A stretch of DNA of 64,000 nt, from NCBI GenBank assembly GCA_001771135.1, contig MESW01000003.1, positions 235,786 through 299,785 of the forward strand. Reading direction: 5' to 3'. Position 1 is the first letter of the stretch; the number at the start of each line of letters is the position of its first letter. The position numbers were made by a program, and so were the translations under genes. The stretch is from a candidate division CPR3 bacterium GWF2_35_18. Lineage in GTDB: Bacteria; Patescibacteriota; CPR3; GWF2-35-18. The notes under the pieces were generated by a model, which did not search any database, was not told the origin of the DNA, and saw only the letters and a program-made list of their open reading frames with translations. Shown here piece by piece: positions 23,654 through 62,178 of the stretch.

Positions 23654-24541
23654 TCATTTAACTAAATTATTACACAAATATTCCTTTGAGACTAGACGCT
23701 CCCACTCGTGAGTATTAATTTTAGACAAAGTTTCAATTTCATTATTTGGTATTGATTTTTTTGCTAAAGTAAAATATGGAGCAGCCACTAGAGCACACCC
23801 AATTTCATTTTGGTGAACAAAGACATCTTTTACGACAACAAAGATCTCTTTATAATCAACTTTTTGATTTTCACCTATCATTAAAATACTTGTCGCTATT
23901 TTCCTAGATATTGGCTCATACAATTCAACGTTATATTTCATTGGATGTTCACCATCAGGTATAAAACCCATATCTTCCATTAAAAGATTTGCATTTTGTG
24001 TTCTATCATTTGCGATACCAATAGCAATAGCAGAATATATACGAATTGGTCCTTTTAATTTTATATTTTTACCTGCACATGGTACATGAGATCCAGGCAA
24101 AAGTGGGAATCTTTTTTTCTCAACAGTTCCAAATAATCGTTTAGTAGCATTAACAAGTGGTTCTCCAGAGTATACACGAACAATTCTTCCGTTTCTTTTC
24201 ACAGATGAAACTCCATAAGCAGACTCCTGTCTGATATTGCTATGCCTAGCAATATCATATCCCCATATCAAACCATTTAATCCACAAAATGAAGATACTG
24301 TGATCATGTTTATTTGTCCAATATTTGTATCATATACCTCAGCTTTATCAAATGCATTTATTTTATCTAAATTATCCGATCCACTACTAGTCAATTCTAT
24401 TTTCGACCTACCAACACCTAAAACTATACCTAAAATATAATTATTCCCGGAGGCCCCTGGACTACCAAAGCCATCACAATAATAATCATATGAGCTTATT
24501 GATCCCTTTAATCTGTCTGTTACTTTTATTTTTTTTGTCAT
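23654..24541 (-). CDS. Pyruvoyl-dependent amino-acid (histidine-type) decarboxylase proenzyme-like (HdcA/PF02329-like)
   Basis: 295 aa. The motif order matches my recollection of the Lactobacillus 30a HdcA proenzyme: IGQINMITVSS-FCGLNGLIWGYDI, with the Ser-Ser self-cleavage site at about residues 83-84. Then SHVPCAGKN, IYSAIAIGIANDRT and VAAPYFTLAKKSIPNNEIE. Confidence 0.55.
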   Translation of the reverse strand: MTKKIKVTDRLKGSISSYDYYCDGFGSPGASGNNYILGIVLGVGRSKIELTSSGSDNLDKINAFDKAEVYDTNIGQINMITVSSFCGLNGLIWGYDIARHSNIRQESAYGVSSVKRNGRIVRVYSGEPLVNATKRLFGTVEKKRFPLLPGSHVPCAGKNIKLKGPIRIYSAIAIGIANDRTQNANLLMEDMGFIPDGEHPMKYNVELYEPISRKIATSILMIGENQKVDYKEIFVVVKDVFVHQNEIGCALVAAPYFTLAKKSIPNNEIETLSKINTHEWERLVSKEYLCNNLVK

Positions 24542-52394: not shown

Positions 52395-52448
52395 TAAAAA
52401 AATCCGTCCCTAAAAACGAAATATTAATTCGTTGCTAAGGACGGATTT
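52393..52448 (-). terminator. Rho-independent terminator (10-bp stem AAATCCGTCC/GGACGGATTT with a nested inner hairpin), followed on the minus strand by TTTTTTT
   Basis: Read from the sequence. Lies downstream of the minus-strand genes 52637-53729 and immediately before the serB-like RBS. Confidence 0.6.
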
Positions 52449-52636
52449 TATCCGTGGTGCCACCTTTATTTGACTCATTTCTAAGCTGTAACGGGCTAAA
52501 CCCGAAGAAACTTATTCATAATTTCTATGTTTTCGTTTCTCAACGTTCCCAATTTATGGATTCTCTGATGGAAGGTCAAAGTAATGACGTTTTTATAAAT
52601 ATTTTTCTATTTTATCACAAAAGAAAATAAAAGGAA

Positions 52637-53822: not shown

Positions 53823-56135
53823 CTATTTCAATACTCCAATAATATCAACCTTACCTCCACAGAAACGAGTAATAAACTCAACGCTTAACTGTAAAGCTTC
53901 CCAGACTTTTTGCGGAGCAACTTCATATACCCCATCAACGTTAATCCAAATATCCCTAGTATCATCTTTTACCAAAGTTCTCTGCGCATCACGATAGTTA
54001 AAATCTAAATTATAAGGCCCTTTTTTATCAAAATAACAGATCTCCCCATTTTTTAGAACAGTTTCTTTTTCGTCTCCATGTAGTAAAATTTTCTCCCCAC
54101 CGGAAGCTGCTTTTAAAAGTGTTGGAAATTGAATATTCTGAAGATCAAAAGCTCCCACGGAAACATGTGTTTTCATCACGACTAGGTTATACGCATCTAC
54201 AAGAGTATTTACACTATATAGCTCTTTGCCTTGCGCCAGTCGTCGTAACAAAGCCTCAGGAGAAGGTCGTCGACTATGCCAGTCAACTCCCATTGCGCGA
54301 TAAAGTTTACGATAACTTAGCAAATTTGGTGATTCTTTTAAACTTTCAACCGTAATCTTACTTAAAGATGCCAGAAATTCTTTTTTGAACTCTGTAAGTT
54401 CTGGTAAAGTTTTGACTATTTTGACGTCTCTAATAATTGCAACTCCCACAGAAATTGAGGGATACTTTTCTTGTAACGATGGATCAATCTGAATTAAATC
54501 TGTATTTCGAAAAAGAGCAAGATCAGAAATAGTTTTTGCTTTTTCTTTATTAACTTTAACGTTTTTAAATTTCTCTGCCACTAAATCTAAATCTTGACTC
54601 AAGATTAAAGCACCTGCCTTAGGACCATATTCTTTACCCAATAATGATTGATAAATAGCAGAAAAAGTTTCTTTAGGTTTAAGGTTTTGACTTTTTCCTA
54701 ACTGATACAAATGATTTTGTATTTCTGTGTCTGATTTAGGATTAACCTTTAGTTCTTTAACATACCCGCTTGCTAAGCTCAAAAAGGCAGTTTGTTCATT
54801 TGATAATCTTGATATAACTGATATTGGGGTATCTTTTTTTACTTCTAATCTAAAATCTTCCGGAGCGTAATTTTTGAGCCACATCTCTGCATACTGTTTT
54901 CGTTCTTTCAGAATATCCAGTTCGACTTTGGTAAGTTTGGCTCTTTTTTCCTTGGCAAAAAAATCAGCTAAAAACTCTACTTTCGGATCTTGAATCGCTT
55001 TCGCGATATCTAAAAATCTCGGAAGAAATTTTGGAGTTTGATAATCTTTTTTATCGTCAATCTGCGCTACTTCATAAATCCGGCCAAAATCATCTGTATT
55101 ACCCTGCTCCCAATAAACATGAGCACAGCGATCATACTCATCAAAAAGATCCGGAATTGTCATACCTTCGGGATCAAAATTGGCTTGTCTGTTATAACGA
55201 TTGCGGGCAAATAGAAATCGTCCAATTGTCGGCGGAAATATTTTTACAAATTCCGAAGCTGAAGTTCCCACACCTTTTGAAGAGGACATCTTCTTCCCTT
55301 TAATCAGAAACCATTCATATGGAATATCGTAAGGATTGGGATAATTATAAACGTCTTTGAGGATTTGCACTGCCATATCGCGAGAACCACCGGCTGAAGA
55401 GTGATCCTTACCTGCGCCTTCGACTGTAATCCCGACTGTCTTCCAATGAGCCGGCCAATCTACCTTCCACATTAGTTTACCGGTACCATTAAATGGTGAA
55501 ACCTTTCCCTCATAACCACAACCTATTGCCCATTTCACCAAATTAGGTACACAGCGGAATGAAACTTCTTTTCCATCCCAATCAAAGACTTCAGTTGTCC
55601 CCACTTTTCCACATTTTGGACAAACAGGCTGAAAAGGATACCAATGTTTTGGTTTATCATAATTACCGACTTCTTTATAAATAAGACGAATCAAATCAAC
55701 TTTATCCAAAGCGGTTTTAATGGCATCATTCATCTTCCCTGATTGATACAGTTCATGTGACCAAAGTATTTCCGGCTTCGCTCCCAACTTTTGCATCGCT
55801 TCAATAAATTCATACGCATACTGATGCCCAAGGCTTTTAGATTTTTTATCCGGCGAGGGAATTGTGAAAAGTGGTTTCCCCATATGTTTCTCATATTCTT
55901 TTTGATCAAGGTAAGAAGGTAAGCCATCCATAGGATCAAAATCATTAAACACGTAGGTATACTTCGCCTTAACTCCCAGGTAAAGTAATGATTTATAGAT
56001 AAAGTCATGAAGAAGCACTCCAACCAAAGAACCCACATGAATCCGACCGGAAGGCGTCTTCATATCATCAACCCACTGGAGTGGTTCACGTCGAGTATTT
56101 TTTATTTCTGTAGCAAGTTTATCAGCCCAAAACAA
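53823..56135 (-). CDS. lysK: Class I lysyl-tRNA synthetase fused to a C-terminal B3/4 (PheRS-beta editing-type) domain. TTG start.
   Basis: MFWADKL..PSGRIHVGSLVG (HIGH region), KMSSSKGVG (KMSKS). The C-terminal approximately 250 aa, ...PNLLSYRKLYRAMGVD..RPSPEALLRRLAQGKELYSVNTLVDAYNLVVMKTHVSVGAFDL...GGEKILLHGDEK..., match B3/4-domain hallmarks. Single uninterrupted 770-aa frame. Confidence 0.8.
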   Translation of the reverse strand: MFWADKLATEIKNTRREPLQWVDDMKTPSGRIHVGSLVGVLLHDFIYKSLLYLGVKAKYTYVFNDFDPMDGLPSYLDQKEYEKHMGKPLFTIPSPDKKSKSLGHQYAYEFIEAMQKLGAKPEILWSHELYQSGKMNDAIKTALDKVDLIRLIYKEVGNYDKPKHWYPFQPVCPKCGKVGTTEVFDWDGKEVSFRCVPNLVKWAIGCGYEGKVSPFNGTGKLMWKVDWPAHWKTVGITVEGAGKDHSSAGGSRDMAVQILKDVYNYPNPYDIPYEWFLIKGKKMSSSKGVGTSASEFVKIFPPTIGRFLFARNRYNRQANFDPEGMTIPDLFDEYDRCAHVYWEQGNTDDFGRIYEVAQIDDKKDYQTPKFLPRFLDIAKAIQDPKVEFLADFFAKEKRAKLTKVELDILKERKQYAEMWLKNYAPEDFRLEVKKDTPISVISRLSNEQTAFLSLASGYVKELKVNPKSDTEIQNHLYQLGKSQNLKPKETFSAIYQSLLGKEYGPKAGALILSQDLDLVAEKFKNVKVNKEKAKTISDLALFRNTDLIQIDPSLQEKYPSISVGVAIIRDVKIVKTLPELTEFKKEFLASLSKITVESLKESPNLLSYRKLYRAMGVDWHSRRPSPEALLRRLAQGKELYSVNTLVDAYNLVVMKTHVSVGAFDLQNIQFPTLLKAASGGEKILLHGDEKETVLKNGEICYFDKKGPYNLDFNYRDAQRTLVKDDTRDIWINVDGVYEVAPQKVWEALQLSVEFITRFCGGKVDIIGVLK

Positions 56136-56589
56136 AGTAAGTTGTCAGTAATTAGTAATCGGTGTCTTATAAAAAAACCCGAAAACCAATACTTAACCTC
56201 CACTAAAATCTTTATTGATAACTGTTTCCTATCATACCAAAAGCTTGATCCAAAAACCAGAGCAAAATATTTACAATTTATTTTCTAGTTTTTGTAATTG
56301 TCGGACAAAAAACAAAAAGTTCTTGACGGCAATATACCCTGTAGATTATTATACCTATAGTTGATCTATTTTAGATCAACTTTTTCATTGCACATCAAAA
56401 GCTGCTTATCCCCAAAAAGCAATCTGGAAGAAGATTTCTATTGAGACTAATTGAATAAAATTTGACTGTCATTTTGACTGAAACTGAGAGATTAATTATC
56501 TGTTAATTTTTCTGTTCCGTCAAAATGACCTTAAAAAAGGCATTTTCAATTTTTGCTTACTAGTGAGTTTTTATACTCGAAAGGAGAAT

Positions 56590-57700
56590 TCTGTTGAAAG
56601 GAGGTGAGGCTGGCTATGAACGCCAATAATACCGTGTGATACTACCTGGCGCCCGCCCCTAGAGGTCACATACCCCGATGGGGCAAATACTCCTAAAGAG
56701 GAGTTCATCTAACCTTTGGTATCGACTGCGCGATCGCGGTACGATGTAATGACCAAAGGATCTTAGTCAGCTAAGTGAGTGGACATGCGTCCTGCTTTTT
56801 CATACTGGCTGACGCCATTTTTCTTTTTGCTAAGGTCCGCGGAGACCTGGAGGCCGACAATGAGTGCACAGATCTTGTGGCTCGATATCTGTATCGGCAA
56901 GTTGTTCATGGCCCGCGTCTTCCGGGATGGTTGCACAACGGTTGAATCCGTTTCGTCTGCCCGGAGCATCTGTGGCCAAATCACCCCCGCGGACACACGA
57001 TGGTATCGCCCAACCTCACGCCCGGAGGGAATTAACCCGACTATCGCCGGGTTTGGCTAGCAGGACTATCTGTGTATCTTTGCGCAAACGCGCTCAATAG
57101 ACGCCCAGTGGGCTGAAATTGTTGCGTCCATGCGCTGCGGATTATCAATCTATTAGTAAGGAGGTGCTCTATCTTCGATACTAACAAGATTCACTCGCTC
57201 GTGTTGGATCTTTCGAAAAGAAAGTTGTGATTCAATCAACTGTGTTTAATCGGCAAAAACTGGAGATCGATCACTCGAAATGTTGAATACCAATAATGTA
57301 CACTCACACCTGTCGCCTTTGACCGCCGATGATCTGCACCTGACCGTCAACCGCCGCGCCGACTACAACCTGAGCCAGTAGCCCAACGATCAATTGCTAC
57401 TGCGAGGTTTTTCGCGAGGTTTGACTAACTCACTTACATTGACCTTGGAGAGGGATATGAGGGACTCATGTCCCTCTCCATGCATTCTCTTGGCCGACGC
57501 GCCAAGATTCAGGGGGAAACAAGGGAGAGACAATTTTTAGACGAGATGGGAATACATTTTTCTGGGGGATTTAAAGTTCTACCCGCCTACCGGTCCGCCG
57601 GAGCCACTTTTACCCACAATCCACAGATTACCAAACCCATCTCGTCTCTCCCAACTCTTTCAAAAACTAATTCCAAATCAACAATATAATATTTCTCGTG
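56590..57700. other. GC-rich approximately 1.1-kb island inside a 1.77-kb gene-free gap. It contains hairpins, a strong SD plus a 7-codon mini-ORF, and short GC3-biased ORF fragments. Candidate foreign-origin or decayed DNA, or a structured RNA.
   Basis: Base composition is visibly about 50 percent GC or more, against an approximately 33 percent background. No ORF exceeds 93 aa. Third-codon-position G/C enrichment is seen in several short frames. Confidence 0.5.
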
Positions 57701-57907
57701 TTATTTTGAGCTCTTATTTATTTATATTTTCACCATGTGGAAGAGTCTAGAAATTCACAATGAACGGAACGTCAAAAAAATGCTCTTGTTTGAGTTCGTC
57801 AAAGGCGACGAGTTAGCTTTTTAGTGGAGTGAGTTGATGAATTTCTTGACGATATAACCTAGTGATGCTTTTTGACTCCAGCTTTTGGCATCGCAAAAGA
57901 TGGAAAA

Positions 57908-59017
57908 TTATCTTAATCTTTTAAAAATCTCGGTATAAACTTTTTCCACATATTCTAATTCTTTAACTTCAACATATTCATCGACTTGATGTGCCTGTAC
58001 AATACTTCCGGCTCCAAAAACAATTGTATTTATACCTGCTTCTTGTAAATCTGCCGCTTCCGTGTAGTATCGGGCTCCAGTTAGTGTAATCTGCGAATCA
58101 ACTTTTTTAATTATTTCAATCATCGAATGGTTATCAACACCCGCTTGAAATGAAGGAAATTTATAAATCTGTTCCACCCTAACTTTATCTTTCAAGACCT
58201 CATCCGTATTCACTAAATTTTGGACTCCCCACAAAATCTGATCCGCATTATATTCTGGAATATAACGAAAATCAATTTTGACTTCACAATAATCTGGAAC
58301 AGTATTTAATACCGAAGTATCTTTTCCACCCTGAATATAACCGATACTAGAAACTCCATTACCCAAAAACTCGTTTTGCTCTTTTTGTAAAATATTAACA
58401 TAGTACTCTTGAAATATATTTAAAAAGTGATTCGCCAGATAGATACTGTTTTCTCCTTCTTCCGGACGCGAAGAATGTACAGATTTTCCTATAAAAGAAA
58501 CTTTCAATCCCGTAATTCCCATGTGCGCAACCAGAATCTCGCGATCAGTTGGTTCGGCAACAAGAGCTTCCTCAATATTTTTATGAAAATCACTTTCAAT
58601 AAAAACCTTAATTCCTTTTCCGGTTTGTTCTTCATCAGCGCTAAAAAGAAAAAGGCAGTTTTCCGGTTTGTTTTTTAAAATCGCTCCAGCTATTGCGGCC
58701 AGAGAACCTTTATTATCACAAGCTCCTCGACCATAAAGTTTTCCGTTCTGAATCTTTCCAGAAAATGGGTCATATAACCATTTGTTTTTATCACCAACAG
58801 ATACGGTATCAAGATGCACATTAAAAAGATATCTTGGTCTTACGCCAAAATAAACAAGCAAATTACTCCGATTATTCTCAAAGCTTTGGATAATACATTT
58901 GCCTTTCGTATTCTTCTCAAAAAAATCTTGCAGATATTCTACAACTTTTATTTCATTTCCGGGTGGGTTCTGACTATCGATCGCAATTAAATTTTGGAGG
59001 ATCTTAACTGTTTTCAT
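57908..59017 (-). CDS. M20-family metallopeptidase/deacylase (ArgE/DapE/YodQ-like)
   Basis: HLDTVSVGD, GRGACDNKGSLAA and SADEEQTG metal-binding motifs. Confidence 0.8.
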   Translation of the reverse strand: MKTVKILQNLIAIDSQNPPGNEIKVVEYLQDFFEKNTKGKCIIQSFENNRSNLLVYFGVRPRYLFNVHLDTVSVGDKNKWLYDPFSGKIQNGKLYGRGACDNKGSLAAIAGAILKNKPENCLFLFSADEEQTGKGIKVFIESDFHKNIEEALVAEPTDREILVAHMGITGLKVSFIGKSVHSSRPEEGENSIYLANHFLNIFQEYYVNILQKEQNEFLGNGVSSIGYIQGGKDTSVLNTVPDYCEVKIDFRYIPEYNADQILWGVQNLVNTDEVLKDKVRVEQIYKFPSFQAGVDNHSMIEIIKKVDSQITLTGARYYTEAADLQEAGINTIVFGAGSIVQAHQVDEYVEVKELEYVEKVYTEIFKRLR

Positions 59018-60306
59018 TTTTTCCTTCTTTTTAATCTCGCTAAATTCTGCGGAACTAGATTGACTTCTCCGCTTTCGGTAAGTAGTTTTGCAACACCAAT
59101 AGTATTTTTATAATCGACTGGATCGCTGTATTTTTTTATATCTAGAGGTAAAGTATGCGTATAATTAGTCGGTTCTGTATAGTTAAATATTAAACCTTCA
59201 TAATTACGGAGCGCGATTTTGTGATTACTCTGGGATAGAACATAATTTGGCATTACTGGAACTTTTCCACCACCACCAATGCCATCGATGACAAAAGTCG
59301 GTACCGCAAAACCGCTGGTGTGACCGCGCAAATTTTCAATAATCTCTATTCCTTCTGATACTTTGGTTCGAAAATGCTCAAGCCCTTGGCTCAAATCACA
59401 TTGATAGATATAGTATGGACGCACGCGATTGACAACTAGCAATTTCACTAGTTTTTTATAAATCAGAGGGTGGTTATTTACCCCACGAAGTAAAACACTC
59501 TGATTGCCAAGAGGAATCCCCGCATCAGCGAGTTTTTGACAAGCTTCTGCCGAAAGATCAGTCATCTCACGCGGATGATTAAAATGAGTATTAATCCAAA
59601 GCGGATGATATTTCTTCAGTATATTACAAAGATTGTCAGTAATTCTCATAGGCATCGTAACTGGCACTCGAGTACCAATACGAATAATTTCTAAGTGATC
59701 AATCACTCGTAATTCTTTCAAAATTACTTCCAGATGATCGTCTGATAAAGTCAAAGGGTCTCCTCCAGAAATAAGGACATCACGAATTGTTTCTCTCTTG
59801 CGAATATACTCTATGGCTTTTTTGATCTTTGACATCGGGGTAGGAATATCTGTTTCTCCCGCATGACGCCTACGGGTACAATGTCGACAATACATCGCAC
59901 ATTGGTAGGTCACGTAAATAATAAGACGATCAGGGTAACGATGAGTTAAGATTCCTTCCAGACCCGGAACAGGACAATCTGCTTCTTCATGCAAAGGATC
60001 TTTACAATCAGTTTTTTTGATATCGGTTTCCGCTAAAGTCGGAATTGCCTGCATTCGAATTGGATCGTTGACTTCATTAGAATCAATTTGCGAAAGATAA
60101 TATGGAGTTATCGCCATCCGTAAAATCTTCAAAGAATCGCTGATTTCCTTTGTAGCTTTGTCACTTAAACCTAAAATCTCCTGTAGTTCTTTAGGATCAG
60201 TAACTCGGTTATTTAGCTGCCAATTATAATCATTCCAATCTCTATCACAAACTTTAAGCCAATATTTATGTTTTTTGGCTTTGGTGAAGAAAAATTTTCT
60301 AGGCAT
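59014..60306 (-). CDS. kamA: Lysine 2,3-aminomutase (radical SAM, KamA family)
   Basis: CAMYCRHCTRRR CxxxCxxC cluster. The N-terminal KYWLKVCDRDWNDYNWQLNNRV is collinear with B. subtilis KamA. 430 aa. Confidence 0.85.
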   Translation of the reverse strand: MPRKFFFTKAKKHKYWLKVCDRDWNDYNWQLNNRVTDPKELQEILGLSDKATKEISDSLKILRMAITPYYLSQIDSNEVNDPIRMQAIPTLAETDIKKTDCKDPLHEEADCPVPGLEGILTHRYPDRLIIYVTYQCAMYCRHCTRRRHAGETDIPTPMSKIKKAIEYIRKRETIRDVLISGGDPLTLSDDHLEVILKELRVIDHLEIIRIGTRVPVTMPMRITDNLCNILKKYHPLWINTHFNHPREMTDLSAEACQKLADAGIPLGNQSVLLRGVNNHPLIYKKLVKLLVVNRVRPYYIYQCDLSQGLEHFRTKVSEGIEIIENLRGHTSGFAVPTFVIDGIGGGGKVPVMPNYVLSQSNHKIALRNYEGLIFNYTEPTNYTHTLPLDIKKYSDPVDYKNTIGVAKLLTESGEVNLVPQNLARLKRRKK

Positions 60307-60416
60307 ATAATCTCCTTCAAATAATCCGCTTTCTGGCGAACTAAATCCTAAACCCTAAGATCTAAACATACCTGCTTAGATCCTAGATCTTATAATTTAG
60401 TATTGATTGGAGCTTA

Positions 60417-60478
60417 GGGGATTGGTGTTTTTCTGTCAAGAAAAAATGATGCGATGCATCCACCAATCCCCTTTTTTG
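60417..60478 (+). terminator. Strong hairpin (11-bp perfect stem GGGGATTGGTG/CACCAATCCCC, 33-nt loop) followed by TTTTTT. There is no plus-strand gene upstream.
   Basis: Read from the sequence. The loop contains TTGACA on the minus strand. Confidence 0.4.
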
Positions 60479-60495
60479 TATCTCTCTGCTCCCTT

Positions 60496-61047
60496 TTAAG
60501 TTTTTTTAGACCAGTTGGCCTTGAGTAACCGACATGCGCCATCAGCTTTAGTGCAATCAACTCCTAACTCTCCACTGCAACAACAAGTTGTTGCTCGAAT
60601 AGCAAGAGGCAATGATGTAAAATCCCACATGGCCATTCCGCCATGAATTAAAGCGGTTATTGCTTTCGAAGTTTTAGCTGTCGCAATAATGCGATGTTTG
60701 CCATTTAATGTCAAAGCTATTCGAACTAATTCCGTTCCGATACCAAGTCCTTGATATTGTGAAAAAACTCCCAGAGTTCCAAGCTCTAGAACACCTTCCA
60801 CTTTAAGATCCCAAAGAGTCACAAAACCAACAAGCTCTAACCCTTCAGGTCTTTCTATGACAGCGGCCACAGTCGCCTCTTTTTTGAGCTGCGGCATAAT
60901 TTCTGCCGGAGCTTTAACTAGCATAATACCTTGATATTCGCGAGTCATTCTGGAAACCTCTTCGGCAATACGAAGGTGATGCTCTGGTGGAATTTGCATC
61001 CCATGAAGAAATTTAACACCATCCACTTTTTCTCTCCTTCTGCTCAT
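60496..61047 (-). CDS. GNAT acetyltransferase (beta-lysine acetyltransferase YodP/AblB-like by context)
   Basis: QYQGLGIGTELVRIAL acetyl-CoA-binding motif. Located next to kamA. Cys-rich C-terminal tail. Confidence 0.65.
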   Translation of the reverse strand: MSRRREKVDGVKFLHGMQIPPEHHLRIAEEVSRMTREYQGIMLVKAPAEIMPQLKKEATVAAVIERPEGLELVGFVTLWDLKVEGVLELGTLGVFSQYQGLGIGTELVRIALTLNGKHRIIATAKTSKAITALIHGGMAMWDFTSLPLAIRATTCCCSGELGVDCTKADGACRLLKANWSKKT

Positions 61048-61710
61048 TTAGAGCAATTTCAAACAGAATGTGCAAGTAATTTAAGCCTACTGGCTTTGTT
61101 CCAACAAAGTTAGATTGAAGCTGTTTCACTCCAATTTTGTGAGAACAACAAAAAACCCGTAAGCTCCAGATTGAACAGGATTTGACGGGTAAAAAAAGTC
61201 TATACGCAAAAAACCGCCTTCTGCTCAATCCGAGAGTCTTACCATCCGTATAGGTGACAAAATTGATCCCAGATTGAGTAGAAGACGGTCTTTAATAAAA
61301 GAACGTGGTACCACTTCTACTTTAAACAGCATTTTAATGTATATTGCTGTTTCTTATAAACCACGCAAGAATTAAAGAATTCTATCAATGGTTTTGGTGT
61401 TGATAACGGACACTTTCCGTTCAGTTCTACTTTCCTAATATATTAGGATTTCTTCTGACAACGCTCCTTAAAAATTCCATTAATAAATGGATCAAGGGAT
61501 GAAGAATCTTTTCAGAAAGAAAGTAATGTTATCTGGCTTACACTAAATTTCCAGACTCGCTATAACTACTTTAGTCTATCCTACTTGTTTCTTATGATTA
61601 CGTCTTTAATTCAATTTTTAACGAGGTACTAATTATATGCTTAACTTCTAACAAATGCAATTTAGTTTTTGAAGTTTACTACTAATATTAAGAATCTGCA
61701 ATCAAATTTT

Positions 61711-62178
61711 CTAACTAATTGCAATAATACGATATTTGATCCTTCCAAGCGGAGCATCTATTTCAACTGTATCTCCAATTTTCTTCCCAAGAAGAGCTTT
61801 TCCAAGAGGTGATTCGTGTGATATTTTTTGTTTTTTGGGATCAGCTTCCGGAGCTCCTACAATATGAAATTCTTCCTCCGTTCCATCAATGTGTAATTTT
61901 ACTTTAGAACCCAATATAACTACTCCGTTGTGATTTTTAACAGCAATCACTTTGGCATTACGAAGAATCTCTTCAAGCTCTTCAATTCGACCTTCAATAA
62001 AAGATTGCTCTTCACGAGCTGTCTGCCAAGCAGAGTTTTCAGAAAGATCACCCAATTCTCTAGCCGCGGTTAATTTTTTTACAACCTCTTTTCGCTTAAC
62101 GTTTGTGAGTTCTTCATATTCTTTTTTCAGTTTTTCAAGGCCTTCTTTGGTTACAAAAACATCATTTTGCTGATTCAT
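61711..62178 (-). CDS. greA: Transcription elongation factor GreA
   Basis: N-terminal coiled coil VTKEGLEKLKKEYEEL plus a C-terminal FKBP-like domain. 155 aa. Confidence 0.9.
   Translation of the reverse strand: MNQQNDVFVTKEGLEKLKKEYEELTNVKRKEVVKKLTAARELGDLSENSAWQTAREEQSFIEGRIEELEEILRNAKVIAVKNHNGVVILGSKVKLHIDGTEEEFHIVGAPEADPKKQKISHESPLGKALLGKKIGDTVEIDAPLGRIKYRIIAIS

Follow-up and report, generated by a model that had tools for sequence, protein, structure and literature searches.

A predicted lysine-specific T-box leader precedes acyltransferase, lysine 2,3-aminomutase and deacylase genes in a CPR3 bacterium

CPR bacteria are thought to rely on amino acids from other cells. Genes under T-box control encode aminoacyl-tRNA synthetases, biosynthetic enzymes and transporters for the cognate amino acid. 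The equilibrium of lysine 2,3-aminomutase favours beta-lysine, and the gene sets ablA-ablB of methanogens and kamA-yodP-yodQ of Bacillus subtilis are the models for an osmolyte module, in which KamA forms beta-lysine, a GNAT acetyltransferase converts it to N-epsilon-acetyl-beta-lysine, and an M20 enzyme deacetylates the product. In B. cereus, the class I lysyl-tRNA synthetase (LysRS) gene lysK has a functional lysine-specific T-box (Foy et al. 2010, PMC2916919), and T-box control of LysRS was described as very rare, with four species reported (PMC2916919). A literature search on T-boxes or KamA in CPR bacteria and on LysRS-B3/B4 fusions returned nothing among the papers covered.

The window analysed here is a 64-kb stretch of the genome of candidate division CPR3 bacterium GWF2_35_18. 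As the original prediction proposed, it carries co-directional GNAT, KamA and M20 open reading frames, all on the minus strand. The GNAT gene (60496..61047) encodes 183 aa when read from 61047; gene callers place the start at a GTG seven codons downstream, which gives 176 aa. KamA (59014..60306, 430 aa) and M20 (57908..59017, 369 aa) follow, and M20 is translationally coupled to KamA, the KamA stop and the M20 ATG overlapping by 4 bp (ATGA). The 189-nt gap between GNAT and KamA (60307..60495, minus strand) is strongly structured (-66.8 kcal/mol, z -6.3) and holds a weak terminator-like site at 60460-60448. When the spacer was compared with those of two related loci, L007 and L008, the window and L007 were found to share a compound hairpin (GGGGAUUGGUG...CACCAAUCCCC) that encloses a weak terminator-like stem, and a long palindromic hairpin directly 5' of the KamA ribosome-binding site was present in the window and absent from L007.

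On the same strand, greA (61711..62178; Pfam and NCBIfam) lies upstream and a class I lysyl-tRNA synthetase gene, lysS, with a C-terminal B3_4 domain (53823..56135; Pfam, NCBIfam and the synteny survey described below) lies downstream, with a 1.8-kb noncoding island between it and the operon. The GC-rich island had no Rfam match at E<=1. An alignment (A5) revealed a conserved extended -10 block, a promoter of lysS's own. The GNAT-KamA-M20 arrangement occurs with identical proteins on more than 20 public contigs, including GCA_000991025.1 and GCA_001772215.1, and one contig (L004) has KamA and M20 identical to those of the window and a different downstream flank. PADLOC defence models gave no meaningful match.

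Between greA and GNAT lies an element that the original prediction missed. Motifs and covariance matches point to a transcription-attenuating T-box riboswitch with a lysine specifier (61205..61607, minus strand), located downstream of greA and heading the GNAT-KamA-M20 string. In a local search, Rfam model RF00230 matched full length at 61278-61607 with 39 bits (E 3.6e-7), a score that does not reach the gathering score of 93. T-boxes surfaced only under E-value thresholds on short stretches, and an Rfam search of the whole window at gathering thresholds gave no match. The T-box motif AGAAGUGGUACCACG is found at 61318-61304; reading the sequence places a 7-nt bulge (UGGUACC) within it and a CUUCUAC segment common to the antiterminator and terminator helices. 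A terminator hairpin with a U-run spans ~61293-61205 (-43 kcal/mol, z -5.3, then UUUUUU), and the specifier codon AAG (Lys) is at 61510-61508 in the context GAA-AAG-A.

L007, L008 and L091, which with the window make four CPR3-like loci, keep the T-box motif, the terminator and the sequence AAAAGA. The same leader with 'AAG A' was found in these three relatives and in L096, L110, L111, L128, L132, L139, L148, L153, L155, L089 and L142, and all 15 leaders that were read carry 'AAG A'. Rfam T-box matches among the relatives reach 48 bits (L148) and 40 bits (L089). The short form of Stem I shows compensatory changes in 7 of 11 pairs, with CAAGA invariant. Genes 3' of the lysine T-box leaders include lysS and LysWXYZJ.

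The radical SAM protein had been assigned as a lysine 2,3-aminomutase, and this assignment stands. It has Radical_SAM and LAM_C domains (LAM_C E 3.7e-37) and scores 575.2 bits against the KamA/AblA equivalog model TIGR03820, above the cut-off of 525.4, compared with 490 against the glutamate 2,3-aminomutase model (cut-off 650) and 367 against the arginine 2,3-aminomutase model (cut-off 600). Grouping with EpmB is excluded by these scores, since the EpmB model TIGR03821 gave 232.9 bits, below its cut-off of 369.3; EpmB proteins are also expected to be short and without LAM_C, which is present here. The protein aligns over its full length with the Clostridium subterminale lysine 2,3-aminomutase (PDB 2A5H, E 5e-157). 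The active-site residues of that structure (CxxxCxxC, R134, D293, D330 and K337), among them the carboxylate-binding Arg, both lysine-specific Asp residues and the PLP lysine, are all kept, as C136/C140/C143, R145, D304, D341 and K348. Judged by its sequence, the window protein is a KamA/AblA-type lysine 2,3-aminomutase with an intact active site, and a capacity for lysine metabolism in this reduced genome, also part of the original prediction, is upheld to the extent that a CPR genome does carry a KamA-type aminomutase.

Unlike 2A5H, window KamA lacks the structural zinc site: a His stands in place of C268, and C375/C377/C380 are missing. This loss is common to the nearest CPR relative examined (L009), and 57-63 of 72 KamA proteins keep the site. 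In the tree, window KamA falls within a separate, monophyletic CPR-specific clade and is sister to KamA of the CPR3-like locus L091; its gene lies in no lysine-fermentation (kdd, kamDE) or abl context. Its GC3 matches that of neighbouring genes. The sister grouping and the GC3 match fit vertical descent with differential loss, which accounts for the KamA distribution better than if KamA had recently been inserted from a foreign source between GNAT and M20. The insertion idea, which came from L007 and L008, was dropped because of the greA-KamA-lysS order in CPR loci, the L091 grouping and the GC3. A proposed link between KamA and the B3_4 domain of LysRS (an editing or EpmA-like idea) was also rejected, as about 60 of 80 CPR class I LysRS carry B3_4 with or without KamA and no correlation was seen.

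The M20 protein, named a deacylase in the original prediction, merits that name: its domains are Peptidase_M20 and M20_dimer (Pfam), and the metal ligands H68, D101, E130, E155 and H343 and the catalytic E129 are present. Its score against the TIGR01910 subfamily model is 215.8 bits (cut-off 217.6), and all equivalog models fall well under their cut-offs. The best relatives are DapE and ArgE, and the closest solved one is DapE (7UOI, E 4e-43). The protein is predicted to be an ArgE/DapE-type N-acyl-amino-acid deacylase with its catalytic machinery intact.

The GNAT protein fared differently. It matches Acetyltransf_1 (E 4.6e-6), but its proposed identity as the counterpart of YodP/AblB fails on several grounds. 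Even at E<=1 it had no match to TIGR03827, the AblB model, on which six KamA-adjacent AblB proteins of other bacteria, used for comparison, score 214-275 bits (cut-off 205), and a profile-profile comparison with that model (hhalign) gave a probability of 9%. AblB/YodP proteins are expected to have ~270-300 aa and to be encoded directly 3' of the aminomutase, whereas this GNAT has 183 aa and lies 5' of KamA. Its orthologues also occur without KamA (L007, L008 and L096), at odds with the co-occurrence expected of AblB. On these comparisons the GNAT is not AblB/YodP. The Cys-rich tail noted earlier is real and conserved across 24 family members, with C155, C157 and C172 invariant and C165 at least 90% conserved, and this four-Cys tail is probably a metal site. 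An AF2 model built from the 24 sequences (pLDDT 92) has N-acetylglutamate synthases as its best structural matches; a model from four sequences had a poor C-terminus (pLDDT 66), and Foldseek matched it to generic GNAT structures only. Its family is very small, resembles N-acetylglutamate synthase and is marked by the four-Cys tail, and a metagenome scan with the GNAT alignment found no confirmed relative.

The surroundings of the operon were compared across CPR genomes in a survey of 61 LysRS-selected loci with greA upstream of lysS. The greA-lysS gene order is ancestral in related CPR genomes. The two genes adjoin directly in 36 of the 61 loci; a gap, often behind the same lysine T-box, separates them in the other 25. 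Fillers of the gap are KamA in six loci, an acyltransferase-like gene with M20 or HDAC in eight, LysXYZJ in two, aspartokinase with Asd in one and MurB in three, and 16 of 19 identifiable fillers are lysine- or deacylation-related. The order T-box(Lys)-LysW-LysXYZJ-lysS is seen in L142. Two non-homologous deacylases, M20 and HDAC, are equivalent as companions of one partner family, which is found with either. KamA and M20 occur together in none of the survey loci. GNAT and M20 without KamA are found in L007, L008 and L096, and L091, like many further CPR loci, has KamA without GNAT and M20, so that the supposed triad is two separable modules joined. Of 140 genes directly adjoining KamA in other bacteria, one encodes an M20 protein and eight encode GNAT proteins.

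We give an even chance to the reading that this lysine T-box operon raises the L-lysine supply, as opposed to forming an osmolyte module of the abl/yod type for N-acetyl-beta-lysine. Genes placed behind a switch that senses uncharged tRNA-Lys would most likely aid lysine acquisition rather than osmolyte synthesis. Under lysine shortage, uncharged tRNA-Lys would stabilise the antiterminator and turn the genes on, and their products would enlarge the L-lysine pool for LysRS. GNAT may add and M20 remove the protecting group in an acyl-protected lysine or diaminopimelate route, or M20 alone could free lysine from N-acyl-lysine. The reversible KamA reaction could run from beta-lysine to L-lysine, with tRNA charging as the pull.

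Several observations count against the lysine-supply reading. The T-box score is under the Rfam gathering score, the aminomutase equilibrium lies on the beta-lysine side, and the structured spacer with its weak terminator-like stem splits GNAT from KamA-M20, so that read-through control of KamA-M20 is no more than putative. A co-induced acyltransferase and deacylase are sensible only if they act at different steps, and no enzymes between the putative GNAT and M20 steps were seen in the window. KamA lies between greA and lysS with no space for a T-box in L092, L135 and L143, and more distant CPR KamA genes are solitary, in unrelated contexts. Since MurB also occupies the slot, position alone is no proof of a role in lysine metabolism.

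A more specific form of the lysine-supply reading, which we consider unlikely, is that lysine-auxotrophic CPR bacteria salvage L-lysine from beta-lysine-type compounds of their neighbours or hosts, with KamA running in reverse, the N-acyl deacylase helping and the T-box switching the genes on when tRNA-Lys is uncharged. Candidate sources would be the free beta-lysine of lysine fermenters and the N-acyl-beta-lysine osmolytes of methanogens. If true, this would add a new way of salvaging lysine and have KamA work in a physiological direction new for the enzyme.

KamA could instead run forward because beta-lysine itself is wanted, as a solute, a cell-envelope block or for an EpmA/EpmB-like modification of a translation factor, with the siting at greA and lysS reflecting a link to translation and GNAT-M20 unrelated. 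The recurrence of KamA beside lysS and greA in several CPR lineages, its solitary occurrence in others without a beta-lysine-consuming partner, and the direction of its equilibrium would all suit this proposal. It is nevertheless doubtful, given that the protein scores as KamA/AblA and not as EpmB, that no EpmA-like ligase was found in the window or the loci examined, and that a lysine-starvation switch ahead of KamA in CPR3-like lineages is a poor fit with lysine consumption.

A joint function might also be lacking altogether, the greA-lysS gap being a permissive insertion site in which KamA, GNAT and M20 came together by historical accident, each with its own role and promoter. The slot contents are indeed highly variable, MurB included, the spacer divides GNAT from KamA, the noncoding island uncouples lysS from the operon in the window, and L004 shows a different flank downstream of identical KamA-M20. 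This explanation seems quite unlikely, since most identifiable fillers are tied to lysine or deacylation, the T-box is kept ahead of the fillers where lysS is detached (the window and L007), KamA and M20 overlap, and two non-homologous deacylases recur with one partner family. Least probable of all, and in our view very unlikely, is the osmolyte module of the original prediction, in which N-acetyl-beta-lysine is made and turned over: the three required enzyme classes are present and co-directional, KamA and M20 are coupled, GNAT does adjoin some KamA genes elsewhere and a non-orthologous GNAT could converge on AblB chemistry, but the GNAT fails the AblB comparisons, the modules separate in sister lineages, M20 hardly ever neighbours KamA in other bacteria, and a T-box activated under lysine starvation does not suit a pathway whose drain on lysine would then be harmful.

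The locus offers a putative RNA switch for sensing lysine, a type reported to be very rare for LysRS, over a changeable cassette of lysine-related genes beside a class I lysS, and so gives studies of how CPR bacteria acquire lysine a concrete point of attack that can be tested. It also draws attention to a CPR-specific clade of aminomutases that lack the zinc site and to a tiny family of uncharacterised acyltransferases with Cys tails. The osmolyte annotation, though attractive, lacks support and is corrected.

Compared with known systems, the locus shares with ablA-ablB and kamA-yodP-yodQ the presence of aminomutase, GNAT and M20 classes close by on one strand. It differs in gene order, in a GNAT homologous to theirs no further than the shared fold, in modules that are separable in CPR relatives and in a lysine T-box in place of salt or sporulation signals. 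The ArgA/ArgE, DapD/DapE, DapH/DapL and LysX/LysK pairs likewise combine an N-acyltransferase with an ArgE/DapE-family M20 enzyme in an amino-acid-regulated operon, and the likeness extends to the GNAT structure, close to N-acetylglutamate synthases, and to the M20 protein, close to DapE and ArgE; here, intermediate enzymes are absent from the operon and the window, and the four-Cys tail is not seen in the structures matched by the GNAT. The tRNA-Lys-responsive T-box of B. cereus class I lysK (PMC2916919) resembles the leaders predicted here in its association with a class I LysRS. The present leaders differ in that they belong to CPR bacteria, often have a shortened Stem I, and precede KamA, acyltransferase and deacylase, or LysWXYZJ genes besides or instead of lysS.

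The three genes of interest all lie on the minus strand of the window (G+C ∼34%), with exactly the boundaries of the original prediction: a GNAT acyltransferase (GNAT, 61047-60496), a lysine 2,3-aminomutase (KamA, 60306-59014) and an M20 deacylase (M20, 59017-57908). GNAT and KamA are 189 nt apart, and the KamA and M20 ORFs share 4 bp. The triad is preceded by greA (62178-61711) and followed, after 1.77 kb without a long ORF, by a gene for class I lysyl-tRNA synthetase bearing a B3_4 domain at its C-terminus (lysS, 53823-56135, minus strand). Contigs identical to this locus are present among public sequences. The GNAT-KamA spacer is structured and contains a weak terminator-like stem. A near-perfect long palindromic hairpin (60330-60395, minus strand) directly 5' of the KamA ribosome-binding site is missing from the spacer of L007, a CPR3-like relative, and may serve in RNA stabilisation or processing, or mark a past rearrangement. 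Contig L004 (1-3416) matches window 60481-57729 (2753 nt, comprising the spacer, KamA, M20 and a further 180 nt) with 100% identity; past this stretch it carries smpB, after which come a 190-nt direct repeat of window 57730-57919 (87% identical) and unrelated genes, an arrangement reflecting either strain-level rearrangement or an assembly chimera.

KamA passes the NCBIfam lysine 2,3-aminomutase equivalog (575 bits, cut-off 525) and stays below the cut-offs of the glutamate aminomutase, arginine aminomutase and EpmB models. It aligns over its full length with Clostridium subterminale 2A5H (E 5e-157), sharing the iron-sulfur motif, the carboxylate-binding Arg, the PLP lysine and the two Asp residues that hold the lysine epsilon-amine. 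Of the structural zinc site, none of the four ligands is present. They are also absent in L009, the nearest CPR relative examined, and are retained by most other KamA proteins. M20 has both M20 domains and every metal and catalytic residue. It is nearest to DapE and ArgE enzymes, yet falls slightly short of every curated cut-off, and no substrate name can therefore be assigned. It has only two close homologues (64% and 60% identity), all others being ≤35% identical.

The triad had been likened to the abl/yod genes for the osmolyte N-acetyl-beta-lysine, with GNAT as the AblB/YodP counterpart. TIGR03827, the NCBIfam model for beta-lysine N-acetyltransferase (cut-off 205), is passed by six GNAT proteins whose genes directly follow KamA in Firmicutes and relatives (214-275 bits). 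The window GNAT gave no match to it even at E≤1, and profile-profile comparison with AblB reached 9% probability, limited to the generic GNAT core. Among 80 KamA loci from other species there were no relatives of the window GNAT and only one, weak, M20 relative. Of 140 immediate KamA neighbours classified with Pfam, 29 were zinc-type dehydrogenases, typical of a lysine-fermentation context, 8 were GNAT proteins, 3 lysine 5,6-aminomutase subunits and 1 an M20 protein. According to these surveys the triad is not a conserved arrangement. The predicted enzyme classes and a capacity for lysine metabolism stand; the abl/yod analogy and the osmolyte role do not.

The 660-nt gap between greA and GNAT contains blocks conserved in three CPR3-like relatives (L007, L008, L091). 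The Rfam T-box model (RF00230) covers window 61278-61607 at full length with 39 bits (E 3.6e-7), short of the gathering score of 93; relatives L148 and L089 score 48 and 40 bits. The leader carries the T-box motif AGAAGUGGUACCACG with a UGGU bulge, and CUUCUAC serves both as antiterminator 3' strand and as 5' strand of a strong terminator (-43 kcal/mol, z -5.3), behind which lies a U-run. The Stem I specifier loop reads GAA-AAG-A, a lysine codon and then a conserved purine; in the short-form Stem I the loop CAAGA is invariant and 7 of 11 pairs have changed in a compensatory way. The motif, the terminator and 'AAG A' recur downstream of greA in database loci L007, L008, L091, L096, L110, L111, L128, L132, L139, L148, L153, L155, L089 and L142, and in L091 KamA and lysS come after the leader. 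A second T-box leader (52434-52596, minus strand; RF00230, 50.8 bits, E 2.6e-10), its motif found in L007 too, precedes a possibly SerB-like HAD phosphatase (52394-51579) and seryl-tRNA synthetase (51564-50281); read by eye, its specifier looks like UCC (Ser).

Scanning metagenomes with the LysRS protein yielded 80 loci, with greA upstream of lysS in 61 and directly adjacent in 36 of these. The gap in the other 25 holds KamA (6 loci), an acyltransferase-like protein with an M20 or HDAC-type deacylase (8), LysX-LysY-LysZ-LysJ (2), aspartokinase and Asd (1), MurB (3) or no identified filler (6); KamA together with M20 occurs in none of them. The partners of M20 in L148 and of the HDAC-type deacylase in L132 are homologues of each other, so two unrelated deacylases share one role. 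The loci of the two close M20 homologues, L007 and L008, are syntenic and read greA-GNAT-M20 without KamA. The nearest homologues of KamA make up a CPR clade (∼30 clusters, 61-75% identity, including Roizmanbacteria and Shapirobacteria), with the order greA-(x)-KamA-lysS in L089/L090, L091 and L092 and a stand-alone KamA in unrelated surroundings in L009, L093, L094 and L095. Across five CPR3-like lineages, GNAT-M20 is present in L096, L008 and L007, KamA alone in L091, and both in the window. GNAT-M20 and KamA are two modules, each able to exist without the other. Vertical descent with differential loss is favoured over a recent insertion of KamA: the window and L091 KamA are sisters in a neighbour-joining tree, and the GC3 of the window KamA matches that of neighbouring genes.

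In L142 (2469-8001) and L130 (1087-8046) the Lys T-box is followed by a LysW-like zinc-ribbon ORF, LysX, LysY, LysZ, LysJ and, directly before lysS, a ∼210-aa protein starting MCRF resembling an N-terminal-Cys amidohydrolase or a class II amidotransferase; the L130 string is headed by KamA as well. Since both strings lack an M20 LysK, this protein may substitute for it in freeing lysine from LysW. Roizmanbacteria-type loci (L089, 3689-4975; also L133, L134, L137) encode between Lys T-box and KamA a 428-aa protein with no Pfam match, in which inspection by eye hints at an ATP-grasp-like ligase; L111 has a 515-aa unknown protein at the equivalent position, before M20. A tRNA-Glu(CUC) gene recurs near and upstream of greA (L001, 2894-2969; L089, L110, L111, L128, L130, L132, L139, L142), so the conserved neighbourhood reaches past greA-lysS. 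The B3_4 domain of LysRS shares its fold with the editing domain of the PheRS beta subunit. Its fusion, for which no description was found in the literature searched, occurs in ∼60 of 80 related CPR LysRS, is absent in L007 and ∼18 others, and shows no correlation with KamA presence among the 80.

Between M20 and lysS lies a G+C-rich island (56323-57815; core 56560-57660, 1.1 kb, 50-57% G+C against 34% for the genome) that lacks a long ORF and matches nothing in Rfam even at E≤1. Blocks within it are 73-93% identical in L007, exceeding the conservation of flanking genes, and the island has a strong predicted fold (z -4.5 and -5.8). Its plus strand has a conserved promoter (56323-56352) and a terminator (57793-57814), which suggests that a ∼1.45-kb RNA is transcribed antisense to the operon. 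The island has GGAGGTG Shine-Dalgarno-like motifs and a 66-aa ORF (56861-57061) of equal length but only 48% amino-acid identity in L007, and may represent a structured RNA or encode a small protein. Elsewhere in the window, a 295-aa protein (23654-24541, minus strand) that matches PF02329, the pyruvoyl-dependent histidine decarboxylase family, and faintly PvlArgDC, is encoded beside a large sensor histidine kinase and would represent an amino-acid decarboxylase within a reduced genome.

T-box leaders turn on genes through which the cognate tRNA becomes charged again, be they synthetase, biosynthesis genes or transporters; on this ground GNAT, KamA and M20 are predicted to belong to a lysine-starvation regulon, most directly GNAT, and KamA directly in L091. 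Such regulation fits a role in lysine supply, the favoured proposal, though one held at no better than even odds. M20 would deacylate an N-acylated compound to free lysine or a precursor, GNAT could add the corresponding protecting group in a linear route, on the pattern of ArgA/ArgE or DapD/DapE, and KamA would turn beta-lysine into L-lysine. The proposal is weakened because the lysine 2,3-aminomutase equilibrium lies towards beta-lysine and no source of beta-lysine is known; beta-lysine may itself be the wanted product, for some other purpose, which we consider unlikely. It is further weakened by the structured spacer and weak stem dividing GNAT from KamA, by MurB occupying the same slot in three loci, and by the annotated parts of the window, where no further lysine-pathway genes were seen. 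Plain co-location of the genes is an unlikely explanation. Synthesis of N-acetyl-beta-lysine is very improbable: it would consume lysine for an osmolyte under a starvation-type Lys T-box, which is hard to reconcile, and GNAT fails the AblB model.

The locus is an amino-acid operon under predicted T-box control. What sets it apart is the Lys specifier in a CPR bacterium, together with a CPR-specific clade of KamA and a Cys-tailed, uncharacterised family of GNAT proteins. T-box control of LysRS has been reported as very rare, with four species described, one case being the class I lysK of Bacillus cereus (Foy et al., PMC2916919).
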